From Nitrososphaeraceae archaeon (GTDB taxonomy: Archaea > Thermoproteota > Nitrososphaeria > Nitrososphaerales > Nitrososphaeraceae), in assembly GCA_044870765.1 (NCBI GenBank), contig JBIOZG010000056.1, forward strand, positions 1-20,552: a stretch of 20,552 nt of DNA, given 5' to 3'. Of this stretch, positions 5,850 to 18,350 are shown in pieces (within the stretch, counting starts at the first letter, position 1; each line of letters begins with the position of its first letter). Below the pieces are notes generated by a model. The model made no database searches, had not been told where the DNA came from, and saw only the letters and a list, made by a program, of their open reading frames with translations. The position numbers and the translations under genes were made by a program.

Positions 5850-6176
5850 TTATCCCCTTTTTCTCTTTGTTTTTGGTTTTGGTTTTGTTTTTGTTTTTGT
5901 TTTTGGTTTTGGTTTTGGTTTTGGTTTTGGTTTTGGTTTTGGTTTTTTAGTCTTCTTTACGGAGGCACTTACTTTATCTTTTGCGTCCACAAATTGCCTC
6001 TGTTTTGCTGCTTTTTGCTTATGACCACAAATATCGCATTCGTAGTCTCTAATTCCCCCAGTTTCTTTAAATTGTCCTTTAGGTTCTGCACTAGCGCTAG
6101 CGGTTACCACAGGATATAGATGACCCTTTTTGCATTTAGGACATAACTCCAATCCAGACACAGAATTATCAATCAT
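5850..6176 (-). CDS. Small Zn-ribbon protein with a Lys/Pro/Thr-rich basic tail
   Basis: CPKC...CDICGH, followed by a (PK)n/(TK)n tail ending in RKRG. Confidence 0.75.
   Translation of the reverse strand: MIDNSVSGLELCPKCKKGHLYPVVTASASAEPKGQFKETGGIRDYECDICGHKQKAAKQRQFVDAKDKVSASVKKTKKPKPKPKPKPKPKPKTKTKTKPKPKTKRKRG
5866..5948. repeat. Hexamer microsatellite (GGTTTT/GTTTTT)n encoding the PK/TK tail
   Basis: About 13 tandem hexamers are directly visible. Confidence 0.9.
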
Positions 6177-6931: not shown

Positions 6932-7312
6932 CTATTTCAGATCTCGCACATTTTTATAACGGTCAGACTGATCTGGTGGCTGAGTGGGAATTCCGACCAT
7001 CCTCTCTTTTACTACTTTTATTCCTTCACTTGAAACGATCTGCTCATCTACTGAAGGCTCTTCTCCGTAAAAGAATTTCCCACGAATCTCTTCCTCATTA
7101 TTACTTAGCCATATATACTCACCGTCATAAGCGTCTGCCAAATTCTTTGGTACCCAAAAACTTTTTTTTCCTACTGATCCTTTCTCTATTCTAAAATGAT
7201 TCTGGGATATTTTTCTGATTTTACCAAGTTTTTTACCATCATTAGATTTTACCTTTTTATTCTTAAGTTCACTCCACAGAACGGTGGGACCGGCTATATT
7301 TTCTTCAGGCAT
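6932..7312 (-). CDS. PRC-barrel-like (DUF2171-like) protein
   Basis: WSELKNKKVKSNDGKKLGKI...FWVPKNLADAYDGEYIW; same pattern as the proteins at 7392 and 16222. Confidence 0.75.
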   Translation of the reverse strand: MPEENIAGPTVLWSELKNKKVKSNDGKKLGKIRKISQNHFRIEKGSVGKKSFWVPKNLADAYDGEYIWLSNNEEEIRGKFFYGEEPSVDEQIVSSEGIKVVKERMVGIPTQPPDQSDRYKNVRDLK

Positions 7313-7391
7313 GTACTATTATGGTCAACATTGGATATAAGCAAACTAGTCAAATCGTTAAATGCAATATTGCGTACAGAAATGTAGCATA

Positions 7392-8024
7392 TTGACTAAG
7401 GTAAAAATTTCCGGTAAAAGATTGATTGACAAGAAAGTAAAGTCGTTTGATGGTAAAGATTTGGGCAAAATCAAAAGTGTTACACCAGAGTACGTAGAGT
7501 TAAAGGATGGTAGCAAGCGGTACTTCGTTCCTAAAGTACACATAAAGGAACGTGATAAAGATCTATATGTATTGCTAATGGGAGATGAAGTCAAAGAAAA
7601 ATATGAAAGGGAAGATCCTCCGCTAGCATCTGAAATACAAGAAGCAGAACGTACAGGGGAGGGATATGCTTCATATCATGAGGTGATACCATTCATGGCA
7701 AAGGAGCCTGGTTTGGAACTAAAGGGAGAAAAAACAGGTGACATCCTAAAAATATCTTGGGAGGATGTAATACATAAGCATGTAAGAACTGTTGACAACG
7801 TGGACATAGGGGATGTGGACAGAGTTGGTAATGAATTTATTGTAGTCAGAGAAGGTGTTGCAAATGTTCACATGTACTATATTCCAAAGCAGTATATTAC
7901 TAATTATGATGGAAGCTCCATTTGGATTGATGTACCGAGTGGATTAGTAAACGCTAAATTTGAACATGAAGACGAACCAACGCAGGAAGAAATTAATATG
8001 TTACTAAATGAATTACCGGAGTAA
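7392..8024 (+). CDS. Tandem two-domain PRC-barrel-like (DUF2171-like) protein
   Basis: Two repeats: LIDKKVKSFDGKDLGKI...YFVPK and WEDVIHKHVRTVDNVDIGDV...YYIPKQYITNYDGSSIW. Start is uncertain (TTG 7392 or ATG 7362). Confidence 0.75.
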   Translation: MTKVKISGKRLIDKKVKSFDGKDLGKIKSVTPEYVELKDGSKRYFVPKVHIKERDKDLYVLLMGDEVKEKYEREDPPLASEIQEAERTGEGYASYHEVIPFMAKEPGLELKGEKTGDILKISWEDVIHKHVRTVDNVDIGDVDRVGNEFIVVREGVANVHMYYIPKQYITNYDGSSIWIDVPSGLVNAKFEHEDEPTQEEINMLLNELPE

Positions 8025-8942: not shown

Positions 8943-8989
8943 CTGATGGGTCCAAGAAGAGACCGAGCCATATGTCGAGGACCCATCAG
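8943..8989 (-). repeat. Hairpin unit U1
   Basis: CTGATGGGTCC-N25-GGACCCATCAG, a perfect 11-bp stem. Strand is assigned from the sibling units. Confidence 0.85.
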
Positions 8990-9060
8990 AAGAGTAAAGA
9001 ATTCAGATAACTTTACTAGAGACCAAAGATAAAAGTTACCTGATTTTCTAAGATAAGAAA

Positions 9061-9094
9061 CTGACGGGTCAACACTACAGACCTGGTCCACCAG
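9061..9094 (-). repeat. Hairpin unit U2
   Basis: Plus strand CTGACGGG...TCCACCAG; on the minus strand CUGGUGG/CCGUCAG pairs with 2 G-U. Confidence 0.7.
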
Positions 9095-9156
9095 AACGAA
9101 TCAATTCCAAATACTGATTTGCGTTATACTACTTTCGCCAATAAAATATAAAAAAG

Positions 9157-9483
9157 TTAAAAATTGATGAGGTCGATGCGAATAGCAATGAACAAGTTTC
9201 CCACCTCAAGGATTTTTTTAATTAACCGGTAACTCAACGGCAAGAATGAACCGATCTGAACTGAACTATTGTTATTCGGGCATATTGTTCTATCATTTAG
9301 CGAATAGCAGTTAGGTGGCAAGTATTTTGTATTCTTCGATTTGGTATTTTCGTCCACAAAAAAGAATATTATGGCCCAAATAGTTGCGGCAATAATGATT
9401 GCTATAATTATCAATGCTATCTTTCGTTGAAATAATCTAGAAATTCTCGAATTGTTGACACCCTCTCGAAGATTAGGCAACAT
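9157..9483 (-). CDS. Hypothetical single-TM protein lying between hairpins U2 and U3
   Basis: 108-aa ORF with hydrophobic IALIIIAIIIAATIWAIIFFFV and a Cys pair (NCYSLNDRTIC). Confidence 0.55.
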   Translation of the reverse strand: MLPNLREGVNNSRISRLFQRKIALIIIAIIIAATIWAIIFFFVDENTKSKNTKYLPPNCYSLNDRTICPNNNSSVQIGSFLPLSYRLIKKILEVGNLFIAIRIDLINF

Positions 9484-9499
9484 TTTATAAATAATTTAA

Positions 9500-9548
9500 C
9501 TGATGGGTCCTCTTAATCATCTGCGACACAAAAGGTAGGACCCACCAG
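9500..9548 (-). repeat. Hairpin unit U3
   Basis: CTGATGGGTCCT-N25-AGGACCCACCAG; 12-bp stem with one plus-strand A/C mismatch (G-U on the minus strand). Confidence 0.85.
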
Positions 9549-9604
9549 AGGCTATATTCTTGGTTCTGAAATATAATCGGCATTAAACCATATAAGACTT
9601 AATT

Positions 9605-9654
9605 CTGACGGGAAGACGATGAATTAGAATGCAAACTAATTGTCCTCCCATCAG
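9605..9654 (-). repeat. Hairpin unit U4
   Basis: CTGACGGGAAGAC-N24-GTCCTCCCATCAG; 13-bp minus-strand stem with 2 G-U. Confidence 0.85.
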
Positions 9655-9796
9655 TGTTAGAGTAGTTCGGTAATTAATATTCGCAAACACATAATAAAAA
9701 ATTTACTCTTTGAGGTTCTGTATTATATTAGAAATTTTGAAATAAAATTTTCGCGTATTGTAATATGTCTGTCTTGAATGCATTTTTGGGATAGTC

Positions 9797-9840
9797 ATTG
9801 GTTGGTGCTCCATCTGGCCCGATAGGCACCAATCAATTTT
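9797..9840 (+). other. Isolated 12-bp hairpin followed by a T run (terminator-like or small RNA)
   Basis: ATTGGTTGGTGC-N17-GCACCAATCAAT-TTT, with one G-T pair on the plus strand. Confidence 0.5.
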
Positions 9841-10131
9841 ACTATTGACGAAGACATGATTTTTGTATAATTCTAGCCGTTAACGCAAACTTGATAAAAT
9901 ATCTAGTATATTTCGTTAATAGCGATTATGTGATTGGTATCTCTTCATCTTCAAATTGTAGCCTACGGCAACTAAGACACTTATCTCTCCATTCATTAAA
10001 TTGGGAAATAGAATTAATAATAACCGACGACAGAATCAGAGATTTTCATGCATAGCACCGTCTATGCGACAGTCAGGATTTCGGAACTTATCATTGCATT
10101 GGCATTCGTTAAAAAGGGAATAAATAATTTT

Positions 10132-10215
10132 CTAATGCGCATATGCAATAGCGGTTACGACCAGTCCCATAATAATGACCGTTAGTGCAGTCGCAGCGAA
10201 TTGTAAAATCAACAT
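10132..10215 (-). CDS. Possible 27-aa hydrophobic membrane micropeptide
   Basis: MLILQFAATALTVIIMGLVVTAIAYAH*, almost entirely one TM helix; overlaps the doubtful 61-aa track ORF in another frame. Confidence 0.4.
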   Translation of the reverse strand: MLILQFAATALTVIIMGLVVTAIAYAH

Positions 10216-10329
10216 TACAATAGTTAAAAAATCCAATTAAAACCTTAATGTAAGAAAATTCTGATATTTGTTCTGTAAATAAAATCGTACTCATATTTCA
10301 GCATTCATAGTTGTTCAGTCTTTGACCGT

Positions 10330-10923
10330 TTAGTGCAGGGTGTCATTTTTGTAATCGCTCATCAAATCCTGGATTTCAAAGTTACCGAGTTTGTCTTGGC
10401 TTTCGAGTTCTTTTCTGGTGTCGAGTTCTTTTCTGGCGACACTATCGTTATCTTTATCACCTTGATTCGTTGTAATCTGACTATCCTCCGTTGCAATCTC
10501 TTTATCTTTTGTCAAAAGATTATCATTTTTCAAATCAAAGCCCTTAGGGACTTGAACTTTATTATCATCAGATAACTCGTCGGTCGATACTTTCGGGCCA
10601 ATGGGCTTTATGCCTAATTCACCCCCATTAATAGTCAAACCGACGTCAGTTTGTGAATGAGTACAGCCCAAATCTTCGCCTCTAGAAGTTGTTTTACATT
10701 CTGTACAGTATTGAGTGGTCTTTTCGGTGGAACTATCGGTCTCCAGTTGACAACAAGTCTCCGTTGTAATCCCATCAGAAGTACTTTTTTCACAAAGTTT
10801 CACACTCTTTACTTTCAATGCATATAAATCTGAAGAGATCGAATTATAAATTACCGCGATAATCAAGGTCGATATAATTATAGACACAAAAAATCTGTAA
10901 TACATTTCCCTATCTGGTCTCAT
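10330..10923 (-). CDS. Secreted or membrane-anchored protein with a Cys-rich domain and an acidic tail
   Basis: N-terminal hydrophobic segment, six Cys (C, CC, CxxC, C), then a D/E/K-rich low-complexity C-terminus. Confidence 0.75.
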   Translation of the reverse strand: MRPDREMYYRFFVSIIISTLIIAVIYNSISSDLYALKVKSVKLCEKSTSDGITTETCCQLETDSSTEKTTQYCTECKTTSRGEDLGCTHSQTDVGLTINGGELGIKPIGPKVSTDELSDDNKVQVPKGFDLKNDNLLTKDKEIATEDSQITTNQGDKDNDSVARKELDTRKELESQDKLGNFEIQDLMSDYKNDTLH

Positions 10924-10950
10924 GGAACCTATTTAATTTTTCTCATTATA

Positions 10951-10974
10951 TGACAGTCTATGATAGTACTGTCA
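10951..10974. promoter_or_regulatory. Inverted repeat TGACAGT-N10-ACTGTCA in the divergent 10923/ku intergenic region
   Basis: 7-bp perfect arms with an inner CTA/TAG; abuts the minus-strand TATAAT of the 10923 gene. Confidence 0.45.
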
Positions 10975-11134
10975 AAGATAAAAGATTCAGTAGAAAATCA
11001 AGGCATCCTCTTTGCATTAGGAATTCTTAATTTTTTTGAGCGTAGGAAGTGGTCTGTTGAGTTGGTTGTATTTGATCAGTTACCCGTCCTCTATTATGAG
11101 CTGTTATAATCTTTGTTGGCTAAAATTACGATAT

Positions 11135-11920
11135 ATGCCGACTAGAAGTTTATGGCAAGGTAGTATTTCGTTCGGTCTTGTCAGCATACCGATTAAACTG
11201 TATACGGCAACAAACAGCAGAGAATACGTCTTCAACCAACTATGTCAAAATGGACATAGAATTAGATACAAAAAATGGTGTCCAGAGGAAGAAAGAGAGG
11301 TTCCTTATTCTGAGATAAAAAAAGGTTATGAAGTTGAAAGAGACAATTACATAGTATTCGAAAAAGAAGAACTAAACAAGGTAAAACTAAAGACGACCCA
11401 TTCCATCGATATTAAGGAATTTATAGAATACAAAGAGCTCGATCCTATCTTAATTGATAATAGTTATTACGTCGCCACTGATGCAAAAAAAGGAAACGAA
11501 AAGGCCTACGCACTTTTAGTGAAGATACTAAATGACAATAACTTGGTGGCCATAGGAAAAGTTATTCTAAAGGATAGAGAAAACGTGGTAGCCTTGAGAC
11601 CTTACCAGAGAGGTCTTGTGATGCACGTCTTAAATTACCTAGATGATATGAAGCCTGTAGATGAGATACCAGAAATGGGGAACGCAAAGTCAAAACTAGA
11701 ACCGGAAGAAATTTCGCTTGGCAAAATACTGGTGCAAAAATATCTCAGTAAGGGTTTTGATATTGGAGATTACTCCGACACCTATGTTAAAGAACTTAAA
11801 AAACTTATAGACGCAAAGAGTAAAGGGAAGAAGTTTGTTTCATCCACCCCTAAGGAAGCAAAGCCAACTAAGGATCTTCTTGAGGCCTTGAAGGCCAGTA
11901 TCGAAACCAAAAAGAAGTAA
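11135..11920 (+). CDS. ku: Prokaryotic Ku (NHEJ DNA end-binding protein)
   Basis: MPTRSLWQGSISFGLVSIPIKLYTAT, RIRYKKWC, EIKKGYEV, IDIKEF, SYYV, KAYALL, D-x-S-D-T-Y and DLLEALKAS. ATG at 11135 has TTATAA about 26-31 nt upstream. Confidence 0.95.
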   Translation: MPTRSLWQGSISFGLVSIPIKLYTATNSREYVFNQLCQNGHRIRYKKWCPEEEREVPYSEIKKGYEVERDNYIVFEKEELNKVKLKTTHSIDIKEFIEYKELDPILIDNSYYVATDAKKGNEKAYALLVKILNDNNLVAIGKVILKDRENVVALRPYQRGLVMHVLNYLDDMKPVDEIPEMGNAKSKLEPEEISLGKILVQKYLSKGFDIGDYSDTYVKELKKLIDAKSKGKKFVSSTPKEAKPTKDLLEALKASIETKKK

Positions 11921-11939
11921 ATGTAATCTCAGATAACAA

Positions 11940-12704
11940 ATGTCCGACGGGTTTCTAACTTTAGACTATGGGAATGTTACCGAAAAAATTACAAGTTTTA
12001 TTTCGGGCCAAGTCAAATCAAGAAAGAAAAATGGCGTAGTTATCGGGCTCAGCGGTGGCATCGACTCATCAGTCTGCACTATTTTGGCATGCAGAGCGCT
12101 TGGAAACAAAAGGATAATTGGTTTGAGTATGCCGGAAAAAGATCTGACGCCCAAAATAAATCTTCAAAATGCTCGTTCCTTGGCAAAAAAACTCAAAATT
12201 AGATATAAGGAAATTAATATTGAACGTGGAAAAAGGATTTTACTGAACAAGTCTCCGAGGGATAAACTAGCGGGAGGAAATTTTTCAGCACGACTTAGGA
12301 TGGCCTTGCTTTATTATTATGCTGCAACCAATAATTTACTAGTATTAGGAACTGCTGACAAGAGTGAACTAATGATAGGGTATTTTACCAAATTTGGTGA
12401 CGAAGGAGCTGATATATTTCCCATTGGAGAATTGTATAAAAGCCAGGTTAGATTGTTGGGGAAAGAACTACAAATACCGGAACAAATCTTGCAACAACCA
12501 AGCAGTCCTGGATTTTGGAAAGGTCAACTAGCGGAAAAAGAAATTGGATTGCCATATAATGAGATTGATAGAATCTTGGAATCTTATCTAAAGAAGAATT
12601 TGAATAGATGTGAATTTGGCAAGAGAAAGATAAAGTTAGTAACTGACATGATAAGGAAAAATCGGCATAAAAAGGATGAGATACCAATATGCAATCCTTT
12701 TTAG
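11940..12704 (+). CDS. nadE: NH3-dependent NAD+ synthetase
   Basis: GLSGGIDSS, GNFSARLRM, LVLGTADKSE, GYFTKFGDEG and PIGELYKSQV; no glutaminase domain; starts 19 nt after ku. Confidence 0.93.
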   Translation: MSDGFLTLDYGNVTEKITSFISGQVKSRKKNGVVIGLSGGIDSSVCTILACRALGNKRIIGLSMPEKDLTPKINLQNARSLAKKLKIRYKEINIERGKRILLNKSPRDKLAGGNFSARLRMALLYYYAATNNLLVLGTADKSELMIGYFTKFGDEGADIFPIGELYKSQVRLLGKELQIPEQILQQPSSPGFWKGQLAEKEIGLPYNEIDRILESYLKKNLNRCEFGKRKIKLVTDMIRKNRHKKDEIPICNPF

Positions 12705-12746
12705 TTTGAGTATCAGGAACTGTTTGTCTAAATTTACTTTTTACAA

Positions 12747-13216
12747 TTATCCTTGGAAACTTAGGCCGCAGTTGTCACAATACCTTGCCGTACTCCGATT
12801 TTCTATACCGCAACTATTGCATTTCTTATTCTCTGAAGTCTCAGCCATTGGATGATCCAAGGCGATTTTCTGCTTTACGATTCTATCTAATATCTCCCCA
12901 AATTTGGTCGAAGAACTGATTTGTGATTCTTTCAGAGCCTCAGATATAGCATCAGATATTGTTGACGCCATCATTCCAAATAGCATTAGGAAGTAGGGAC
13001 TAACATGTATGTCCGGGGTAAAATTACCGTCTAAATCCTTTCCTTGCTAGGAGGATCCAATAGATTTGGTGCCTCCAAAAATTTCAAGAAAGTATCATCA
13101 GGCATTTTTCTAAGGACGTCAAATAACCGATCCTTAAATTTATCCATAAAATACCACTCCGCTGGGAATTCCTTTGCCAACCAAGGATGTGATTTTTCCT
13201 TAATTTCATCAGACAT
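12747..13216 (-). pseudogene. Frameshifted gene (about 156 aa if rejoined) with a C-terminal zinc ribbon
   Basis: The frame of the 12747-12986 ORF stays open upstream (QGKDLDGNFTPDIHVSPYFL-MLFG) to about 13046 and overlaps the end of the 13031-13216 ORF. Adding one base joins them. C-terminus CNSCG-x3-RSTARYCDNCG. Confidence 0.6.
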
Positions 13217-13388
13217 TATTTTTGATAAGAATTGGTTTGATTAAAATATTGTCTTTATTATTTAAGATTCTTAATGCACCTAGTTGCACAGTTACTATCA
13301 TGGAGTTAGTGTGATTAGGAACAGGATGTCTGAGTAAAGTTATTTAAAATATAATGACTATGTCAGAAGATCAGAATGATAAACGGCT

Positions 13389-13619
13389 GTGTCAAATGAA
13401 ACGATTGGAAAATACCTTCTAAAAATTCAAGAGAAGACAATTGATGACCAAGGAAGTTACGTTGATATGTATAAAATTGGAGAAGACATCGGATTAGTAG
13501 ACAAAATTCAAACTGATCATATCGTAGGGATTCTTTTGAAGGACGGGTACATAATTAATGGTAGAGAAAATTCTAAAATCAAATTAACCAAAGAAGGCTA
13601 CAAAAGACTAAAGAAATAA
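13389..13619 (+). CDS. Small hypothetical protein, possibly winged-helix
   Basis: IGEDIGL...IVGILLKDGYI...IKLTKEG resembles a wHTH wing (LTxxG). GTG start is uncertain. Confidence 0.6.
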   Translation: MSNETIGKYLLKIQEKTIDDQGSYVDMYKIGEDIGLVDKIQTDHIVGILLKDGYIINGRENSKIKLTKEGYKRLKK

Positions 13620-13701
13620 TCATACATAATAATCAACTTACAAAGTATTTTCAGAGTCGGTCTTCTTTTATGCTGCTATATCCCTTACAGTTCCCTCAGA
13701 T

Positions 13702-13881
13702 CTAAGTCTCTTTTATTAATGACCTCATTTTTTCATTAAAGGCTGGAATAAAGTCTTGCTTTTTTATACCGTGAGCATTGAATGCGTGCTTTTGACCTTT
13801 TGTAAAGAGCTCATAGTCGCTCTCTGCTTGCGCAATGTAATCGCAATCAAATCCAGCGTCTCGACATGATAAGGATTTCAT
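13702..13881 (-). CDS. DUF1059-family small metal-binding protein (59 aa, not in the ORF track)
   Basis: MKSLSCRDAGFDCDYIAQAESDYELFTKGQKHAFNAHGIKKQDFIPAFNEKMRSLIKET*, with CxDxGxxC...HAxxxHG. Confidence 0.85.
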   Translation of the reverse strand: MKSLSCRDAGFDCDYIAQAESDYELFTKGQKHAFNAHGIKKQDFIPAFNEKMRSLIKET

Positions 13882-14090
13882 GTTAAGAATGGTTCAGTAA
13901 ACTATAAAAGAATTAGAGGTACGACTGGTGATTTCCAACGTGTAAAAACACATTGATACTAATTTGCAAAACGTTTAATGGAAAAGAGACAAACATTGTT
14001 ATTTTCTTCAAGAACATTAAAGAATACTATTGATAAGTCGCGAATTGACCCGTCCCTTTTGTAATCGCCTATGGACTAGATTTACTTGTT

Positions 14091-14330
14091 TTAGCCTTCA
14101 GTTACATTACCCCATATTTGCATTGCAAATCCAACTGCCAATAAAGCAGCACCCAACTGAGCGATTCTTGTCTCTAGCAGTCGATGTTTTTCCTCGTACA
14201 CATTCTCGTCATAATGCGTTTGAGACTCCTTCTTAATAGTCTTCTTCGACCGAAAAATTCTACCATAGCCGATCAGAATAGATGCAATTAAGTTAATCAC
14301 CAAACCAATTAGCATAAGTGTCTTTGCCAT
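14091..14330 (-). CDS. Small two-TM membrane protein
   Basis: Two hydrophobic helices flank a charged loop. Confidence 0.7.
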   Translation of the reverse strand: MAKTLMLIGLVINLIASILIGYGRIFRSKKTIKKESQTHYDENVYEEKHRLLETRIAQLGAALLAVGFAMQIWGNVTEG

Positions 14331-14389
14331 CTGCTTTAATTAATAGGCTGAGATCTTGTGATTCGAAGAGATTTTAAGTAATATGTCAA

Positions 14390-14794
14390 TTAAAATATGT
14401 TTTCCGAGTATCTATTTTCAGAAACGAACTCTTCAAGTGACATTATTAAACACAAATTCAAGATTTTATAACCGTATAGTCCAAATAGTTTCTTAAATTG
14501 TCTCTGCGTTACTAGTTCAGAGAACATCGGTTTTCTTCTTGCTAACTTCTTAAACAATCCAATGAGGTTTATTGTATTAAACATCGATCTGTAAGGTAAC
14601 ACATAACAACCAAGATTCTGTAATGACAGAACAATATCCAAGCCTTGGATATCTCTTATTATCCTAAAGAAAGTTTCTTCCTCCGAAACTTCCGTTCGTT
14701 TCACTGTAACTTCCTTTAAATTTTTGATATTCCCTATACATTGAGATTTAGTGTCTATAACTAGTTTTGATCCTGAGGTTGCTTTCCCAACCAT
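14390..14794 (-). CDS. Hypothetical protein or gene fragment
   Basis: 134-aa ORF with no recognisable motif. Confidence 0.35.
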   Translation of the reverse strand: MVGKATSGSKLVIDTKSQCIGNIKNLKEVTVKRTEVSEEETFFRIIRDIQGLDIVLSLQNLGCYVLPYRSMFNTINLIGLFKKLARRKPMFSELVTQRQFKKLFGLYGYKILNLCLIMSLEEFVSENRYSENIF

Positions 14795-14946
14795 ACATAA
14801 ATAATGTGCAACAAAGGCTAAAAATAAGCAATTTCTGCCTTGCCTTACGCTGATATAAGTTTATATCATTCAGGCATTTAAAAACAGTTTTGTATATTAC
14901 TTTACTACATAAGGAATAATAATATTTGTTAATTAAAAATAAAAAA

Positions 14947-15114
14947 TTATGCCGGATCTTTTTCGTCATTATCTTCGTCGACCATTTCTGCTGCCTCTTC
15001 TCTTAAGTTTTCAGCAGGTCCAGTCGTCTCAGGATCATTTTCAGCGGCTCCGGGCTTTTTCTGATTTTTCTGGGCTTCTTCAAGACCCTTGTTATCGTCA
15101 GTTGTCTCGCTCAT
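14947..15114 (-). CDS. Small acidic hydrophilic (stress-like) protein
   Basis: MSETTDDNKGLEEAQKNQKKPGAAENDPETTGPAENLREEAAE...; shared promoter motif upstream of ATG 15114. Confidence 0.7.
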   Translation of the reverse strand: MSETTDDNKGLEEAQKNQKKPGAAENDPETTGPAENLREEAAEMVDEDNDEKDPA

Positions 15115-15285
15115 TGTACTAATATACATAGCAACAAAGGTTAAGAATGTATAAAAATGGTTCAGTGAACCTATTTTTCTTTCTATTATTTCATTATTGC
15201 ATCAGATAGACAGCCTACAAATTAATATTTGATAAGGATCTATTCTAAACTACACCTACACAGATTCCCCTTTCGGATTGCTTAA

Positions 15286-15537
15286 CTACGCCGCACGTAG
15301 ATGCTTTTGAGATTTTATTTTATCCAGAAAATATGCTAAAAGAGTTTTTTGGTCCGCCCAAGCGCTTTTTCTCCAAAGAAGTTTATAGGTGATTTGAGAT
15401 ATGATATACCAAGCAATTGAATTTACAAGAAGAGTAACAAGAAATCCTAAATAAACTGTCATGATTACCCCAGTTATTGTACCGCCTATTAGGAAAGGAA
15501 CTTGGCGCTTTATCGCAGTTACTACATTATGATCCAA
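15286..15537 (-). CDS. Small membrane protein
   Basis: Hydrophobic PFLIGGTITGVIMTVYLGFLVTLLVNSIAWYII; start is uncertain. Confidence 0.65.
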   Translation of the reverse strand: MDHNVVTAIKRQVPFLIGGTITGVIMTVYLGFLVTLLVNSIAWYIISQITYKLLWRKSAWADQKTLLAYFLDKIKSQKHLRAA

Positions 15538-15737
15538 AATGTGCTACAACTATTAATACAGAACAATCCTTAATAATGCACTCATTTAGTTCTAACCCAG
15601 TGAATGTTCTAAATAACGACTGCAGTAACTCTCGGTTAATATTTTCAGTAAATAAGGTTTCATCTGTTTAGTTCTTATTGCTCTCATTATTGGTATACTG
15701 AATACTGCTATTGCAGTTGAAAGAACTTCGTCGATTA

Positions 15738-15965
15738 ACTGGTCAAAGATATGTATAAGTCCACTTGTCGATAATCTCGCACAGAACCCTGCGGTTCGCT
15801 GACTAGTCCCAATGGCACCGCGTTGACCGACCCCGGAAGAAAAATTTTAGTCTGTCTTATGCTAGGGGGGCTGTCTAAGTCTTTTGGACTTCCAGAAGAG
15901 CAGTTGAAGCTCTTGTTACCATCTTCAGGATGTACCGGCTTCAGTCCACAATTGCCCACTCAACC
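15738..15965 (-). ncRNA. Candidate structured ncRNA of unknown family
   Basis: About 52% GC over 15776-15965 (hand count 98/190) in an AT-rich intergenic region. Minus-strand helices: UGGACU/AGUCCA, CCGG/CUGG, CAUC/GAUG, AAGAGC-UUCAACU-GCUCUU, CCCC/GGGG, GAACC/GGUUC and GGUCAA/UUGACC. Confidence 0.55.
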
Positions 15966-16128
15966 ATAAAACAACTCGAATATTTTGTTTTGATATTTTC
16001 GCTCATCTATTAGGTAAAGGCTTGACTCTCAGCTGTAGTGCATACAAATTATCCTTTGTAAATGCTCTAGGAATGATCAAGTGAATATTCTTTTGCAAAT
16101 CATCACATACAACAAATTAAAAAAAGTT

Positions 16129-16171
16129 AAGACTATATCAGGACCAGTAGGACTGGCAAATTAAAAAAGTA
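16129..16171 (+). pseudogene. 3'-end remnant of a paralog of the 8657-8905 gene
   Basis: 36/43 nt identical to 8870-8912; KTISGPVGLAN* versus KVISGPVGQAN*, each followed by AAAAGTA. Confidence 0.7.
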
Positions 16172-16221
16172 AATTAATTTTTCAGAGATATGGCAGATTA
16201 CGGCAAAAAGTATTGTATAGA

Positions 16222-16452
16222 CTAATCGTGCTTGTATGCCTTGGCCTCATCTTTAGTAACACTGAACCAGACTTTATCTCCGTCGAACTTAGCAACTTTG
16301 CTTCTAGGTAAATAAAACTTATCTTTATCAACAACTCCTCTTTTTGTTACTACAAATTCTTCATTCAACTCTTGCACCTCACCCAAATCGTAATCATCTA
16401 GTCCCCTTGCTTCCTTTTTTATGATCTTGTCCCAATCTATTATATCGTTCAT
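16222..16452 (-). CDS. Single-domain PRC-barrel-like (DUF2171-like) protein
   Basis: IDWDKIIKKEARGLDDYDLGEV...KFYLPRSKVAKFDGDKVWF. Confidence 0.8.
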   Translation of the reverse strand: MNDIIDWDKIIKKEARGLDDYDLGEVQELNEEFVVTKRGVVDKDKFYLPRSKVAKFDGDKVWFSVTKDEAKAYKHD

Positions 16453-16571
16453 ATAGTGTAGTATAGCAACATTTCATATAAAGATTGAAAAATCCATTTG
16501 CGCCAAATATTGAACTCTTCTGAGGTCGGCCATGTTAAATCTGTTAAATAGTTTTATGACAATAACACATC

Positions 16572-16793
16572 ATGAGTAACTCAACCGTCCTGTCAAATAC
16601 TATGTACGATATCTTGAACGCAATGGGCAAAGATGCAGAATTTCTTTACGATACAATTGACAAGTACATAAAAGACGCAAAAGACGCAAATAAACAATAC
16701 TTAGTTGACACTTGGCAAAAGATTAAAGATGATAAATTAAATCATGTAACTATGTTGAAGGATGCTCTTGAAAAGGAGATCCACGGGGGATAA
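16572..16793 (+). CDS. Small helical ferritin-like protein
   Basis: Two-helix pattern YIKDAKDAN...WQKIKDDKLNHVTMLKDAL with a DxxH motif. Confidence 0.65.
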   Translation: MSNSTVLSNTMYDILNAMGKDAEFLYDTIDKYIKDAKDANKQYLVDTWQKIKDDKLNHVTMLKDALEKEIHGG

Positions 16794-16860
16794 GGCGTTT
16801 TTACTGTTGGAATATACAATTCCTTTTGGTAATACTACACGATTCTGGTAGGTAAAGAAT

Positions 16861-16960
16861 ACTGGTGGGTGAGCACTCAGCCATGAAGCGAACAGCAAGA
16901 GGTCCCCACTGGTGGGTGAGCACTCAGCCATGAAGCGAACAGCAAGAGGTCCACACCAGT
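16861..16960 (-). repeat. Hairpin unit U5, tandemly duplicated (2 x 45 bp, period 47)
   Basis: ACTGGTGGGTGAGCACTCAGCCATGAAGCGAACAGCAAGAGGTCC occurs at 16861 and 16908; terminal IR ACTGGTG/CACCAGT. Confidence 0.85.
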
Positions 16961-17032
16961 AGTCAGATTACTTTCTGGACTTAACCTAATCCGTGACAAA
17001 TCGTCAAATACAAACAATTATGAAATAATTTA

Positions 17033-17082
17033 ATACCGGTGGGAAGAATCGTAAACTGACAAAATTAATTGCCCACCGGCAT
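17033..17082 (-). repeat. Hairpin unit U6
   Basis: ATACCGGTGGG-N28-CCCACCGGCAT; 11-bp minus-strand stem with 1 G-U. Confidence 0.85.
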
Positions 17083-17146
17083 GTGGTTGCGATTCTACGT
17101 TATATTTCAATGCACATTAAATTATAAATAGCTAAAAGTATTGAGG

Positions 17147-17196
17147 CCGGTGGGAATTTAGCCTCATGAGTTTATGACAAGTCCTTTCCCCACCTC
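17147..17196 (-). repeat. Hairpin unit U7
   Basis: CCGGTGGGAA...TCCCCACCTC; 8-bp minus-strand stem with 1 G-U. Confidence 0.75.
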
Positions 17197-17255
17197 GATT
17201 GAAGGGTTAACTTACCAAGCCTATAACTTTAAAAATATAATAACAAGTTACAAAG

Positions 17256-17298
17256 CCGGTGGGATGAACGAGTGATTGGTAAGACAAGGCCCCACCGC
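17256..17298 (-). repeat. Hairpin unit U8
   Basis: CCGGTGGGA...CCCCACCGC; 8-bp minus-strand stem with 1 G-U. Confidence 0.8.
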
Positions 17299-17468: not shown

Positions 17469-18350
17469 ATGAAGGATTCTTCTAAGGTTTTCAAGATTTC
17501 ATTAAGTTTAGCACTAATGGTACTTGTTTTTACAATGACACCCGGTTCTTCTTTATTTAATATTTTAAAACCTGTGTCGGCTGCTGCACTAACAGGTGTA
17601 TCCGTCTCACCTGCCAGTAACGTAATTAATGAAAGGGCAACCTATGATATCTTTCTTACAACAAAGACTACAGGAACGATCAAAATCATTCAAATAGATT
17701 TTCCATCTAGTTTTAATCTCGCTTCATTTAGACTGATAGAAAAGAGTGGCATTGGTCCTGGTTCATTTTCGTTCTCCGGTTCAACTTTGAAATATACGGT
17801 AAATAGTGCTACTAGTGTTCCTGCTGGAACGAATATTAAACTCGAAGTAGGCAGAATAATTGCGACAGAAGCAGGTAGTCAAACCGTCAGTATACAAACA
17901 ATAAATCCGCAGAATGTTGTAATAGACGGGCCGACATCATCCGGTTCTTTTACCATAAAGGCCATAACTGGTAATGATGTTTCACCGGGCTTTATAAAAA
18001 GAAAGACTTTGCTCGATGATGCCGCAGGAAACACACACGGATGGAACCCTGATGGCTCTGCCAAAATTTTTGGCATTATTGATGGTGACATCTCAGGACC
18101 TGCTAATAACATATTTGTCAGCGCAATCGATGAGGACGGAGCCGGTTGTAGGACAATAGATTTTGATGCTGAGGAGAATTTGATGAGTATTAGGTGTGAC
18201 TTTCCTCCGGCTAATAATAATGCCCTCCATTACCTAATAACTAAACTTCCAGCGAACGTTGTAACATCAACGTCATTAATTTCATCTCAATCTCTGCTTT
18301 CCTCATCTATACCTTCATCTCCGTTCGACACCTTACAGGTAGACAAATAG
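17469..18350 (+). CDS. Secreted or cell-surface beta-rich protein with a Ser-rich C-terminus
   Basis: Signal peptide (KVFKISLSLALMVLVF...VSA), S/T/G-rich beta pattern, one Cys pair and a Ser-rich tail. Confidence 0.8.
   Translation: MKDSSKVFKISLSLALMVLVFTMTPGSSLFNILKPVSAAALTGVSVSPASNVINERATYDIFLTTKTTGTIKIIQIDFPSSFNLASFRLIEKSGIGPGSFSFSGSTLKYTVNSATSVPAGTNIKLEVGRIIATEAGSQTVSIQTINPQNVVIDGPTSSGSFTIKAITGNDVSPGFIKRKTLLDDAAGNTHGWNPDGSAKIFGIIDGDISGPANNIFVSAIDEDGAGCRTIDFDAEENLMSIRCDFPPANNNALHYLITKLPANVVTSTSLISSQSLLSSSIPSSPFDTLQVDK

Follow-up and report, generated by a model that had tools for sequence, protein, structure and literature searches.

A large family of probable small-RNA genes with a conserved closing helix in one genus of Nitrososphaeraceae

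The hairpins in the 20,552-nt stretch of DNA analyzed here (the window) are real. They are members of a large family, so far uncatalogued, whose units are probably small-RNA genes. The family is almost confined to one uncultured Nitrososphaeraceae genus of soil ammonia-oxidising archaea. We favor, with moderate confidence, a reading in which its members are trans-acting antisense small RNAs built on a shared scaffold, each unit in the window being a separate minus-strand gene.

The first-pass annotation had reported units starting at positions 8943, 9061, 9500, 9605, 16862/16909, 17036, 17147, and 17256, with neighbors 118, 105, 127, 111, and 109 bp apart, and all of these values proved correct. 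Counting both strands, the window contains 15 copies of the arm word CYGRYGGG, compared with 1.18 in shuffled sequence (standard deviation, 1.06; maximum, 4; 0/100 shuffles reached 15). The proposed total of eight hairpins survived in part: four hairpins in the window are solid (U1, U3, U4, and U6), and a further four or five are decayed (U2, U5a/b, U7, and U8). All of them are best read on the minus strand, to which every window feature listed below belongs. U1 (8943 to 8989) has an 11-bp closing helix around a 25-nt C/U-rich interior (z = -4.25 relative to shuffles), U3 (9500 to 9548) a 12-bp closing helix with a minus-strand G·U pair (z = -3.96), and U4 (9605 to 9654) a 13-bp closing helix together with an inner stem (z = -6.92), while U6 (17036 to 17079) is of the CCGG..CCGG type (z = -3.26). 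No shuffle among 200 folded as well as U1, U3, or U4, and one folded as well as U6. The claim that A/C mismatches on the plus strand correspond to G·U pairs on the minus strand, with folding favored on one strand, was borne out by the fold energies of U3 (minus, -21.6 kcal/mol; plus, -16.4 kcal/mol) and U4 (minus, -24.0 kcal/mol; plus, -16.0 kcal/mol).

U2 (9061 to 9094; z = +0.37), U5b (z = -0.63), U7 (17147 to 17197; z = -1.75), and U8 (17256 to 17298; z = -1.33) do not stand out clearly from shuffles and are degenerate copies; the closing helix of U2 is broken, and the outermost pair of U8 is mismatched. U5a and U5b (16862 to 16959) form one weakly folding hairpin gene, within which 47 nt are duplicated in tandem. 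A covariance model, R1, seeded with 59 family members that include U1, U3, U4, and U6, was run on the window with filters off. The four seed units scored at E values of 2e-7 to 2e-5 (U1, 2e-7; U3, 3e-7; U6, 1.8e-7), as expected by construction. Among the decayed units, the best scores of U2 (E = 0.0074) and of U8 (E = 0.039) fell on the minus strand, U5a/U5b gave E values of 0.16 to 0.17, and U7 gave nothing at an E value of ≤1.

The first-pass annotation had placed TATA-like boxes about 20 to 28 nt upstream of U3, U4, and U6, which was wrong: the family box starts ~45 to 65 nt upstream on the minus strand. The predicted RNAs therefore exceed the 45 to 50 nt originally proposed and would probably include a 12- to 35-nt 5' leader, for a total of ~60 to 90 nt. 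Located 44 nt before its hairpin, the box of U2 (9139 to 9151) follows TTTTTAACTTTT and has one mismatch to TTATAWWWTGTTG; the stretch around it (query 550-606) matches unit promoter regions in many genomes of the genus. The box of U6 (17115 to 17127; two mismatches) lies 35 nt before the hairpin and is kept in a 15-row alignment of U6-type units, which are multi-copy in genomes G012 and G042. Promoter-like boxes with three mismatches precede U4 (9685 to 9699) and U5b (17011 to 17023). The corresponding box of U1 (approximately 9021 to 9037), as read from 11 aligned U1-type units of 7 genomes, has a 2-nt deletion relative to its orthologues. By inspection, two TATA-like words upstream of U3 (9581 to 9597 and 9569 to 9578, together spanning 9569 to 9597) are candidate promoters, a degenerate TATA-like box lies upstream of U7 (approximately 17231 to 17243), and the leader of U5b contains a small 5-bp hairpin (16977 to 16992) in which a minus-strand U·G pair becomes a C/A mismatch when the plus strand is read.

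Several of these units have relatives elsewhere. U1 as a whole is kept at 77 to 86% identity in six genomes (G010, G012, G013, G014, G016, and G042) and has a paralogue on contig C17 of the host genome (G000), and the promoter and leader of U4 (query ~9-85) are 74 to 94% identical in 11 genomes of the genus. U5 has a paralogue in the host genome (C4:26582) and homologues in G012, and its U5b leader recurs on host contigs C17 and C12 and in G012.

A covariance model and genome scans, the checks proposed in the first-pass annotation, uncovered further copies in the host genome and in its relatives. The 2.0-Mb host genome contains ~45 intergenic copies. A pattern search there found 28 strict hairpins and 58 with at most one arm mismatch, and the reversed-genome control gave 3; none of the 28 strict copies falls within an ORF of at least 80 amino acids, although crudely called ORFs take up 80% of the genome. 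R1 returned 36 strand-hits at an E value of ≤0.01, corresponding to ~24 loci. The hairpin pattern was present in 16 of 18 other genomes of the genus. Of 12 genomes drawn from the order's other families, one had it, and this lone match was not above its control. In a second draw spanning the family Nitrososphaeraceae, 19 of 21 other same-genus genomes were positive (0 to 71 copies each), and each of 129 genomes from 17 other genera had at most 3 matches. The suggestion that the family is undescribed held up in a search of Rfam 15, which returned no match. Membership tests for CRISPR and REP elements both failed, in line with the first-pass view that the arrays are not CRISPRs.

The hairpins are coupled to a family-specific BRE/TATA-like box that ends in TTGTTG; many units have this box 27 to 51 nt upstream, with a U-rich tract after the hairpin. 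The combined pattern (box, 22 to 52 nt, hairpin) gave 60 matches in 22 of 40 genomes of the genus (58 in 21 of 39 when the unpublished G037 is left out) and none in the backward control. A looser promoter expression matched 20 sites in the host genome, at 10 of which a family hairpin comes next (8 with a strict arm and 2 by eye). The extended box is absent from the 22 tRNA genes of this genome; in 5 of them, a TTATA word begins 30 to 38 nt before the mature 5' end, which indicates the TATA-to-start distance to be expected. For 66 units, the orientation was set solely from the promoter box (≤1 mismatch). Their 8-bp closing helices contain 475 Watson-Crick, 43 G·U, and 6 A·C pairs, plus 4 of other kinds; G·U without A·C is seen in 31 units, and A·C without G·U in 2. 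T is the base right after the hairpin in 51 of the 66. Together, the box, the U-tract, and the excess of G·U over A·C pairs imply that each unit is most likely its own gene for a 60- to 90-nt RNA.

The outer-stem covariation noticed at the outset is also real. Across a 59-row alignment, 86.0% of cells are paired (shuffles, 78.7%), with a covariation score of 0.321 (shuffles, 0.189); 0/500 shuffles reached either value. Pair 2 of the closing helix is UA in 37 rows, UG in 12, and CG in 10, and pair 4 is GC in 28, GU in 19, and AU in 11; subfamily D additionally has a covarying leader hairpin. The original idea of individually transcribed RNAs with variable loops is compatible with these findings, namely a dedicated box on the G·U strand of many units, the U-tract, covariation, genus-wide occurrence, and absence from Rfam; its RNA length, TATA distance, and number of intact units had to be revised. 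Two RNA runs were found, as contig assemblies from relatives that contained 5 to 6% of query words, and were uninformative on strand and ends.

The evidence for an antisense role comes from subfamily A, which is absent from the window. Together, its loop and 5' inner stem form the exact complement of nucleotides +1 to +19 of an ORF in the host genome (G000:C2:67267-67599). The predicted duplex has an energy of -31.5 kcal/mol, compared with a mean of -13.1 kcal/mol for 200 shuffles (standard deviation, 3.0; best, -25.4). The ORF encodes 110 amino acids with a signal-peptide-like N terminus and gave no match in a Pfam search; the gene is conserved, and its product is small and probably secreted. 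In a set of 27 orthologues, identity to the consensus averages 0.992 at +1 to +18 and 0.806 at +19 to +66, and third-position identity is 1.0, 1.0, 1.0, 1.0, 1.0, and 0.96 in codons 1 to 6, compared with 0.41 to 0.96 in codons 7 to 22. Each of the 13 substitutions within +1 to +19 replaces A with G at a position facing a U in the RNA, which leaves a wobble pair in place; A to G is a common mutation, and the 13 represent only ~4 or 5 independent events. Hairpin-rich genomes also carry the target orthologue, a co-occurrence that follows phylogeny and is therefore not independent evidence. A TATA-like word ends ~24 nt before the target ATG, a geometry also described (PMC3379541) for amo genes of ammonia-oxidising archaea that are probably leaderless, and the target mRNA is probably leaderless as well. 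The invariant 5' end could instead reflect constraints on leaderless-mRNA initiation.

The antisense role suggested in the first-pass annotation is therefore backed by subfamily A, whereas the units in the window are without a found target. BLAST searches with the loops and leaders of these units against the host genome gave only chance-level matches of ≤15 nt outside paralogues, and no gene-start match was found for the conserved U1 seed. In a crude genome-wide comparison of host hairpin RNAs with ATG-start regions, the best stretch averaged 17.65 pairs, with no excess over reversed controls (17.12).

From these patterns, we infer a mechanism that extends to the window units, including transcription, the RNA ends, leaderless targets, repression, and a protein partner. 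Transcription would be driven by an archaeal, family-specific promoter (a GTTTAAC-like word, a T-rich TATA box, and TTGTTG) and start ~12 to 18 nt past TTGTTG. The predicted leader, 12 to 35 nt long, often ends in CAU and in some subfamilies may form a small hairpin of its own. It would be followed by a 30- to 60-nt hairpin whose family-wide conserved closing helix of 8 to 12 bp (5' CYGRYGGG/CCCRYCRG 3') serves as a common stability scaffold and possibly a protein handle, and by a U-rich stop. The subfamily-specific, C/U-rich, G-poor interior would be displayed as an antisense seed and pair in trans with mRNA 5' ends, thereby blocking translation or altering mRNA stability.

A serious, if unlikely, alternative is that the units are transcribed structured RNAs that bind or titrate proteins (as decoys, sponges, or RNP scaffolds), the subfamily-A match being a by-product of an inverted gene-5'-end origin. 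The strongly conserved helix sequence, superfluous for an antisense role, counts against our preferred reading: positions 1, 3, and 6 to 8 are invariant or nearly so in the 59 rows, beyond what pairing needs. Moreover, several subfamilies, such as D, have highly conserved, internally structured interiors, most members lack a found target, and no global excess of pairing was seen. However, the subfamily-A target site is constrained at the nucleotide level in its 27 orthologues, with wobble-compatible changes, and the hairpin interiors are C/U-rich, G-poor, and CAU-enriched (CAT, 56 times; ATG, 25 times; U, 575; A, 424; C, 417; G, 284), as expected of accessible seeds against start regions.

We consider it quite improbable that the units are portable terminator-plus-promoter cassettes in which the hairpin ends one unit and the next box starts another, located at joints of swappable small accessory genes and promoting recombination shuffling. 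In arrays, the next box does directly follow each hairpin; the surroundings are mosaic, with homologues of window genes scattered across contigs in relatives; arrays are not kept in place; and one leader can be joined to different hairpins, as with the U5b-type leader on host contig C17. An exact family box without a hairpin after it (9478 to 9490) even precedes a protein ORF (9157 to 9483), which encodes a small membrane-like protein in a region 73 to 83% identical in G012, G016, the unpublished G037, and host contig C55. Yet some arrays are gene-free runs of 3 to 5 units ordered promoter, leader, hairpin, and their box-to-hairpin gap of only 27 to 51 nt leaves no room for a gene. Subfamilies also keep their interiors from species to species, alongside covariation and strand-specific G·U pairs; one interior is a trans match to the start of a gene; and archaeal termination is not known to require a hairpin.

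REP/MITE-like DNA palindromes that fold as single strands and owe their movement to an HUH (Y1) transposase or other recombinase encoded elsewhere, as the first-pass annotation had also proposed, would account for the multi-copy, intergenic palindromes of species-dependent position and number (0 to 71 per genome), and DNA hairpins tolerate G·T wobble too, but this explanation is hardly tenable given that the 96.65%-complete host genome has no Y1_Tnp (PF01797) match, that the interiors fall into subfamilies rather than being conserved as whole palindromes, that an unsystematic look noticed no target-site duplications or empty sites, and that the fixed-distance coupling of the hairpin with a BRE/TATA-like box and U-tract, found on the strand that bears the wobbles, argues for transcription and against a single-stranded DNA substrate.

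Among known systems, REP/BIME (RAYT) elements and integron attC sites resemble the family: they too are imperfect palindromes, dispersed or in arrays, that fold in a strand-specific way. They differ in that the present units are spaced ~110 bp apart without cassettes, each coupled to a promoter box, with no HUH transposase found in the host genome and, as first read from the sequence, no attC core words in the arms. Archaeal C/D box and H/ACA guide sRNAs (~50 to 70 nt) likewise combine a common scaffold with variable segments in multiple, sometimes clustered copies; membership in either class fails here, as foreseen for C/D boxes, with neither C/D nor ACA boxes, no Rfam match, and no excess complementarity to 16S or 23S rRNA. 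Bacterial sibling sRNAs (LhrC, Qrr, and the cia-dependent csRNAs) occur as several paralogues per genome, often in tandem, and use C/U-rich loops to pair with translation-initiation regions, often of mRNAs for surface or secreted proteins; their 3' end is a hairpin with a U-tail. The family described here shares the tandem paralogues, the C/U-rich loops, and the hairpin-plus-U-tract 3' end, but it has an archaeal promoter, no Hfq, a far higher copy number (up to 71), and, as its common element, a closing helix of conserved sequence in place of a generic terminator. The trans-encoded base-pairing sRNAs of Methanosarcina and Haloferax are short, structured, independently transcribed, intergenic RNAs that pair with mRNA 5' ends, including leaderless ones. 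The present family is predicted to be alike in these respects, and it differs from them in comprising dozens of genes per genome that have a single conserved closing helix and a single extended promoter box in common, arranged in tandem arrays and divided into subfamilies conserved across the genus.

Re-reading of the window sequence placed the hairpin units U1 to U8 (8943..17298), which share the closing helix CYGRYGGG/CCCRYCRG, at the positions and spacings reported by the first-pass annotation. Counting both strands of the window gave 15 occurrences of the arm word CYGRYGGG relative to 1.18 expected, and 0 of 100 shuffles reached this count. On the minus strand, U1 (8943-8989), U3 (9500-9548), U4 (9605-9654), and U6 (17036-17079) are intact hairpins, with fold z-scores of -3.3 to -6.9, whereas U2, U5b, U7, and U8 folded no better than shuffles (z, +0.37 to -1.75). 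Only four of the eight proposed hairpins are thus intact. A covariance model built from 59 family members, including the four intact units, matched U2 (E = 0.0074) and U8 (E = 0.039) on the minus strand and U5a and U5b with E values of 0.16 to 0.17; U7 was without a match at E ≤ 1. The U5 locus (16862-16959) is a single hairpin gene in which a 47-nt tandem duplication has produced two overlapping, half-broken hairpins (U5a and U5b) with one common promoter. The observation that folding favors one strand also held: the minus-strand folds of U3 and U4 are more stable than the plus-strand folds by 5 to 8 kcal/mol, since positions mismatched as A/C on the plus strand pair as G·U on the minus strand. 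All window units are assigned to the minus strand from their promoter boxes, wobble pairs, and covariance-model scores. A search for tRNAs in the window found none.

These units belong to a larger family. In the assembly that contains the window as contig C56 (2.0 Mb, 36% G+C, 96.65% complete), a strict pattern requiring both 8-nt arms with 10 to 60 nt in between matched 28 times, and allowing one arm mismatch raised the count to 58, relative to 3 when the genome was reversed. None of the 28 strict copies falls inside an ORF of at least 80 aa, even though crude ORFs make up 80% of the genome. Ten one-mismatch matches fell within ORFs of at least 150 aa; these were taken as chance and excluded from later counts, leaving 49 entries with overlaps, or ~45 elements. 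The covariance model gave 36 strand-hits at ~24 loci in this genome (E ≤ 0.01). Among relatives in the same uncultured Nitrososphaeraceae genus, of which we know no cultured member, the hairpin pattern was found in 16 of 18 other genomes, compared with 1 of 12 genomes from other families of the order (a single match, relative to 2 in the control). A family-wide draw gave a similar picture, with 19 of 21 other genomes of the genus positive (0 to 71 copies each) and at most 3 matches in each of 129 genomes from 17 other genera. Backward-pattern controls were near zero in both draws, and a few of the sporadic matches outside the genus, such as one in genome G161, resemble true members by eye. Taken together, these data establish beyond reasonable doubt that the family is real. 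Hairpins number 0 to 2 in the largest of the genomes placed in the genus (G006, G018, G046, and G050; 2.7 to 3.7 Mb) and 7 to 71 in its ~2-Mb genomes; the genus seems to comprise two clades that differ in the hairpin system.

Many of the hairpins are preceded, on one strand, by a BRE/TATA-like box in which a GTTTAAC-like word is followed by a T-rich TATA box and then by TTGTTG. A loose form of this box has 20 sites in the window's genome, and at 10 of these a family hairpin begins within ~30 to 50 nt (strict arm in 8, degenerate by eye in 2). Combining box, a spacing of 22 to 52 nt, and hairpin in one pattern yielded 60 matches in 22 of 40 genomes of the genus (58 matches in 21 of 39 without genome G037), relative to 0 for the backward control. 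The unpublished genomes G037 and G038 enter the analysis through tallies of this kind only, and the conclusions are independent of them. Collecting units from the window's genome and 51 fetched stretches gave 99 units (92 unique), and 66 of these have at most one box mismatch. Among the 66, TTGTTG lies 27 to 51 nt (median, 38) from a hairpin of 29 to 56 nt (median, 41), and the first base past the hairpin is T in 51, with T-rich positions after it.

These signals allow the transcript to be predicted. The 22 tRNA genes of the window's genome lack the extended box, and 5 of them have a TTATA word 30 to 38 nt before the mature 5' end; in amo genes of ammonia-oxidizing archaea, TATA/BRE elements lie 23 to 24 nt upstream of the ATG, according to PMC3379541. 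With the amo geometry, transcription would start ~12 to 18 nt past TTGTTG, and conservation between orthologous units begins near this position. The RNAs are therefore predicted to be ~60 to 90 nt long, rather than the 45 to 50 nt first suggested. Each unit appears to have its own promoter and its own 3' end independent of neighboring genes, as far as sequence signals tell; the idea of individually transcribed RNAs is accordingly supported by box, T tract, and intergenic position, although not in the size originally assigned to them. Two RNA runs (X1 and X2) covered 5 to 6% of query words, in assembled contigs from relatives whose strand and ends are not readable. One X1 contig, from a soil RNA library, has a U1-type interior at the position of U6, beside a homologue of ORF 17469-18350, implying that the relative carries a different hairpin at that place; we rejected this contig, which joins window positions 8962 and 17035, as a transcript of the locus, as it reflects shared hairpin arms in the relative. 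An exact box at 9478-9490 (minus strand) precedes a small membrane-like ORF (9157-9483) rather than a hairpin. This ORF is kept in genomes G012 and G016 and on another contig (C55) of the window's genome, and the box may thus define a regulon of RNA genes and small protein genes.

Orienting the 66 units by the promoter box alone provided a test of which strand folds, since the pattern used for searching equals its reverse complement and cannot introduce a strand bias. Of the pairs in their 8-bp closing helices, 475 are Watson-Crick, 43 are G·U, 6 are A·C, and 4 are of other kinds, with G·U pairs only in 31 units and A·C pairs only in 2. The folded strand is the promoter strand. In an alignment of 59 rows (55 units of other genomes plus U1, U3, U4, and U6), which are related and were picked by an arm pattern that lets variable positions differ from each other, 86.0% of paired cells were complementary, compared with 78.7% in shuffles, and the covariation score was 0.321, compared with 0.189; 0 of 500 shuffles reached either value. 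Shifting the partner by 1 to 3 columns lowered pairing to 28 to 46%. The outer-stem covariation seen by eye in the window thus extends to the family, and these sequence features give good support to the view that the units are RNA genes.

The interiors fall into groups that recur across species, each with its own leader between predicted start and hairpin. In six other genomes (G010, G012, G013, G014, G016, and G042), U1-type units are conserved over their whole length, promoter and tail included; a paralogue lies on contig C17 of the window's genome, and the 5' half of their interior is almost invariant. U6-type units are multicopy in G012 and G042, the promoter and leader of U4 recur in 11 genomes, and the leader of subfamily D forms a covarying 8-bp hairpin. 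The interiors are poor in G and rich in C and U (U, 575; A, 424; C, 417; G, 284) and contain CAT 56 times, relative to 25 for ATG. Among the 66 units, which come from the window's genome and loci L002 to L083, the last 12 nt of the leader contain CAT in 40 and ATG in 6, relative to 11 and 5 in an upstream control stretch; the CAU word lies 4 to 10 nt before the hairpin, where it may act as an anti-start codon, direct processing, or be bound by a protein. A U5b-type leader stands before a different hairpin on C17, and leader and hairpin have recombined in some units. The U5b leader and its paralogues (window 16960-17010, minus strand; C17:32284-32334) contain C-box-like and D-box-like words and a 5-bp hairpin in which one U·G pair is strand specific; neither an rRNA target nor an Rfam match was found for this leader type. 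Pseudoknots between leader and loop, and a motif of the leader close to CAAGAACAC, were noticed by eye but discarded as inconsistent, and small ORFs opposite subfamily A were set aside as short and unconserved.

The strongest candidate for a function comes from subfamily A, which has ~10 copies in the window's genome, none of them in the window. Its loop and 5' inner stem are perfectly complementary to the opening 19 nt of an ORF on contig C2 (67267-67599; 19/19 at the start codon) that encodes a 110-aa protein with a signal peptide-like N terminus and no Pfam family. The predicted duplex has an energy of -31.5 kcal/mol, compared with a mean of -13.1 (SD, 3.0) and a best value of -25.4 among 200 shuffles; for eight other subfamily-A copies, the duplex with this target ranges from -16.8 to -27.8 kcal/mol. 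The ORF has matches at E ≤ 1e-5 in 38 of 40 genomes of the genus, with close orthologues in most, whereas hairpin-poor genomes have distant paralogues only. (Of the latter, G006, G018, G046, and G050 lack a close orthologue.) Across 27 orthologues (G037 left out), positions +1 to +18 are 99.2% identical to the consensus, compared with 80.6% for +19 to +66, and the third positions of codons 1 to 6 are invariant in five cases and 0.96 conserved in the sixth, relative to 0.41 to 0.96 for codons 7 to 22. All 13 substitutions in +1 to +19, which reflect few independent events, change an A that faces a U of the RNA into G, such that a wobble pair is kept. A TATA-like word ends ~24 nt before the ATG, and by the geometry cited above for amo genes (PMC3379541), the target mRNA is probably leaderless.

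These sequence data fit a loop-initiated antisense interaction over the mRNA 5' end, and the antisense mechanism is proposed from this one subfamily. Translation initiation constraints could instead have conserved the 5' stretch of the target, and the co-distribution of hairpins and target orthologues follows phylogeny and is thus not independent evidence. For the window units and the family as a whole, loop and leader BLAST and scans of seeds and stretches identified no targets: leader BLAST returned paralogues alone, 11-mer seeds against ATG regions gave noise only, and a stretch-based scan of the family showed neither enrichment nor a global excess of pairing. A recurrent near-match to the U1 seed (C46:30925 of the window's genome) was rejected as a gene start because its ORF has only 13 codons. 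The main rival to an antisense function is a role as protein decoy or scaffold, which would explain why the helix is conserved in sequence; we consider it unlikely.

An antisense function could also be part of a broader scheme, to which we would assign a low probability, in which the closing helix serves a dedicated putative RNA-binding protein as a handle and the family is a programmable guide-RNA system of soil ammonia-oxidizing archaea. Under this scheme, ten to seventy guide genes per genome would be transcribed from one specialized promoter class, perhaps recognized by one specific TFB/TBP paralogue or by a stress regulator, and each gene would display its own antisense seed with which leaderless mRNAs would be caught at their 5' ends. 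Among nitrifiers, soil Nitrososphaeraceae are a major group, and to our knowledge, almost nothing is known about their posttranscriptional regulation. Dozens of small RNA genes per genome with a common helix and promoter class, expanded in one lineage, would rank among the largest archaeal regulatory RNA families. The family offers a testable pair of small RNA and target on a probably leaderless mRNA, its defined helix could serve as bait for a partner protein, and the covariance model and promoter motif are usable on soil metatranscriptomes.

The arrays lie in mosaic surroundings with many small genes of unknown function, many single-domain response regulators, and many small secreted proteins, and no nuclease, recombinase, or RNA-binding family was recognized among the neighboring proteins. 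They are not kept in place between species: in G012, no array lies upstream of the orthologue of ORF 17469-18350, and most of 30 loci around homologues of the window's Ku70/80 beta-barrel gene (11036-11920, plus strand; PF02735, E = 1.2e-43) have no hairpins within 8 kb, with only the Ku gene aligning to the window. This mosaic setting, together with reshuffled modules and joints in which a hairpin is followed by a promoter, would suit portable terminator/promoter cassettes. However, the tandem arrays are gene-free between units, and subfamily conservation, strand-specific wobble pairs, and the match in trans all argue against cassettes, which we regard as quite improbable compared with RNA genes.

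Several MAGs of the genus have two Ku loci, and the Ku gene aligns between genomes but its neighborhood does not. Three paralogous small proteins are encoded in the window (6932-7312, minus; 7362-8024, plus; 16222-16452, minus), one of them just below the Pfam cutoff for DUF2171 (24.3 bits versus 25), and members of this family are also encoded near hairpin arrays in other parts of the genome. A small zinc ribbon-like ORF (5850-6176, minus) ends in a long tail of Lys-Pro and Lys-Thr dipeptide repeats. The ~110-aa secreted proteins (C2:67267-67599 and C21:15727-16065) form a genus-wide family with no Pfam match, members of which often lie near hairpin units, and their C-terminal domain also ends larger secreted proteins (C21:12405-13370 and C22:36110-37771).

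REP-like single-stranded DNA palindromes mobilized by an HUH transposase, one of the initial suggestions, are very improbable, given that the Y1 transposase family PF01797 of REP/RAYT systems had 0 matches in the 96.65%-complete genome and was present in 6 of 14 control genomes. The arms lack the integron attC core words (RYYYAAC/GTTRRRY), and no cassettes lie between units, as judged by eye. The initial exclusion of a CRISPR array was upheld, since the conserved words form the two inverted arms of individual hairpins spaced ~105 to 127 bp apart, each unit with its own promoter box. Rfam 15 had no match in the window (E ≤ 1) or among 15 loci of other subfamilies (E ≤ 0.1). C/D box small RNAs were rejected because Rfam matches are lacking, antisense matches to rRNA stay at shuffle level, and the C/D-like leader has no rRNA target. 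Compared with the 16S rRNA of this genome and the 23S rRNA of a congener (the 23S gene being absent from the assembly), the longest antisense matches of the loops averaged 7.11 nt (7.11 in shuffles) and 7.61 nt (7.54 in shuffles), respectively, and neither rRNA contains family arm words. H/ACA small RNAs are likewise excluded by the U-rich stretch after the hairpin (T first in 51/66), the absence of rRNA complementarity, and the absence of an Rfam match. By these sequence comparisons, the RNAs are not rRNA guides; they are probably trans-acting small RNAs. Full-text searches of open-access papers and bioRxiv found no description of such a family, and its combination of a common closing helix, a dedicated promoter class, high copy number, and restriction to one genus is new. 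If the guide-RNA scheme were true, the system would be a functional analogue of snoRNP or crRNP logic, related to neither.
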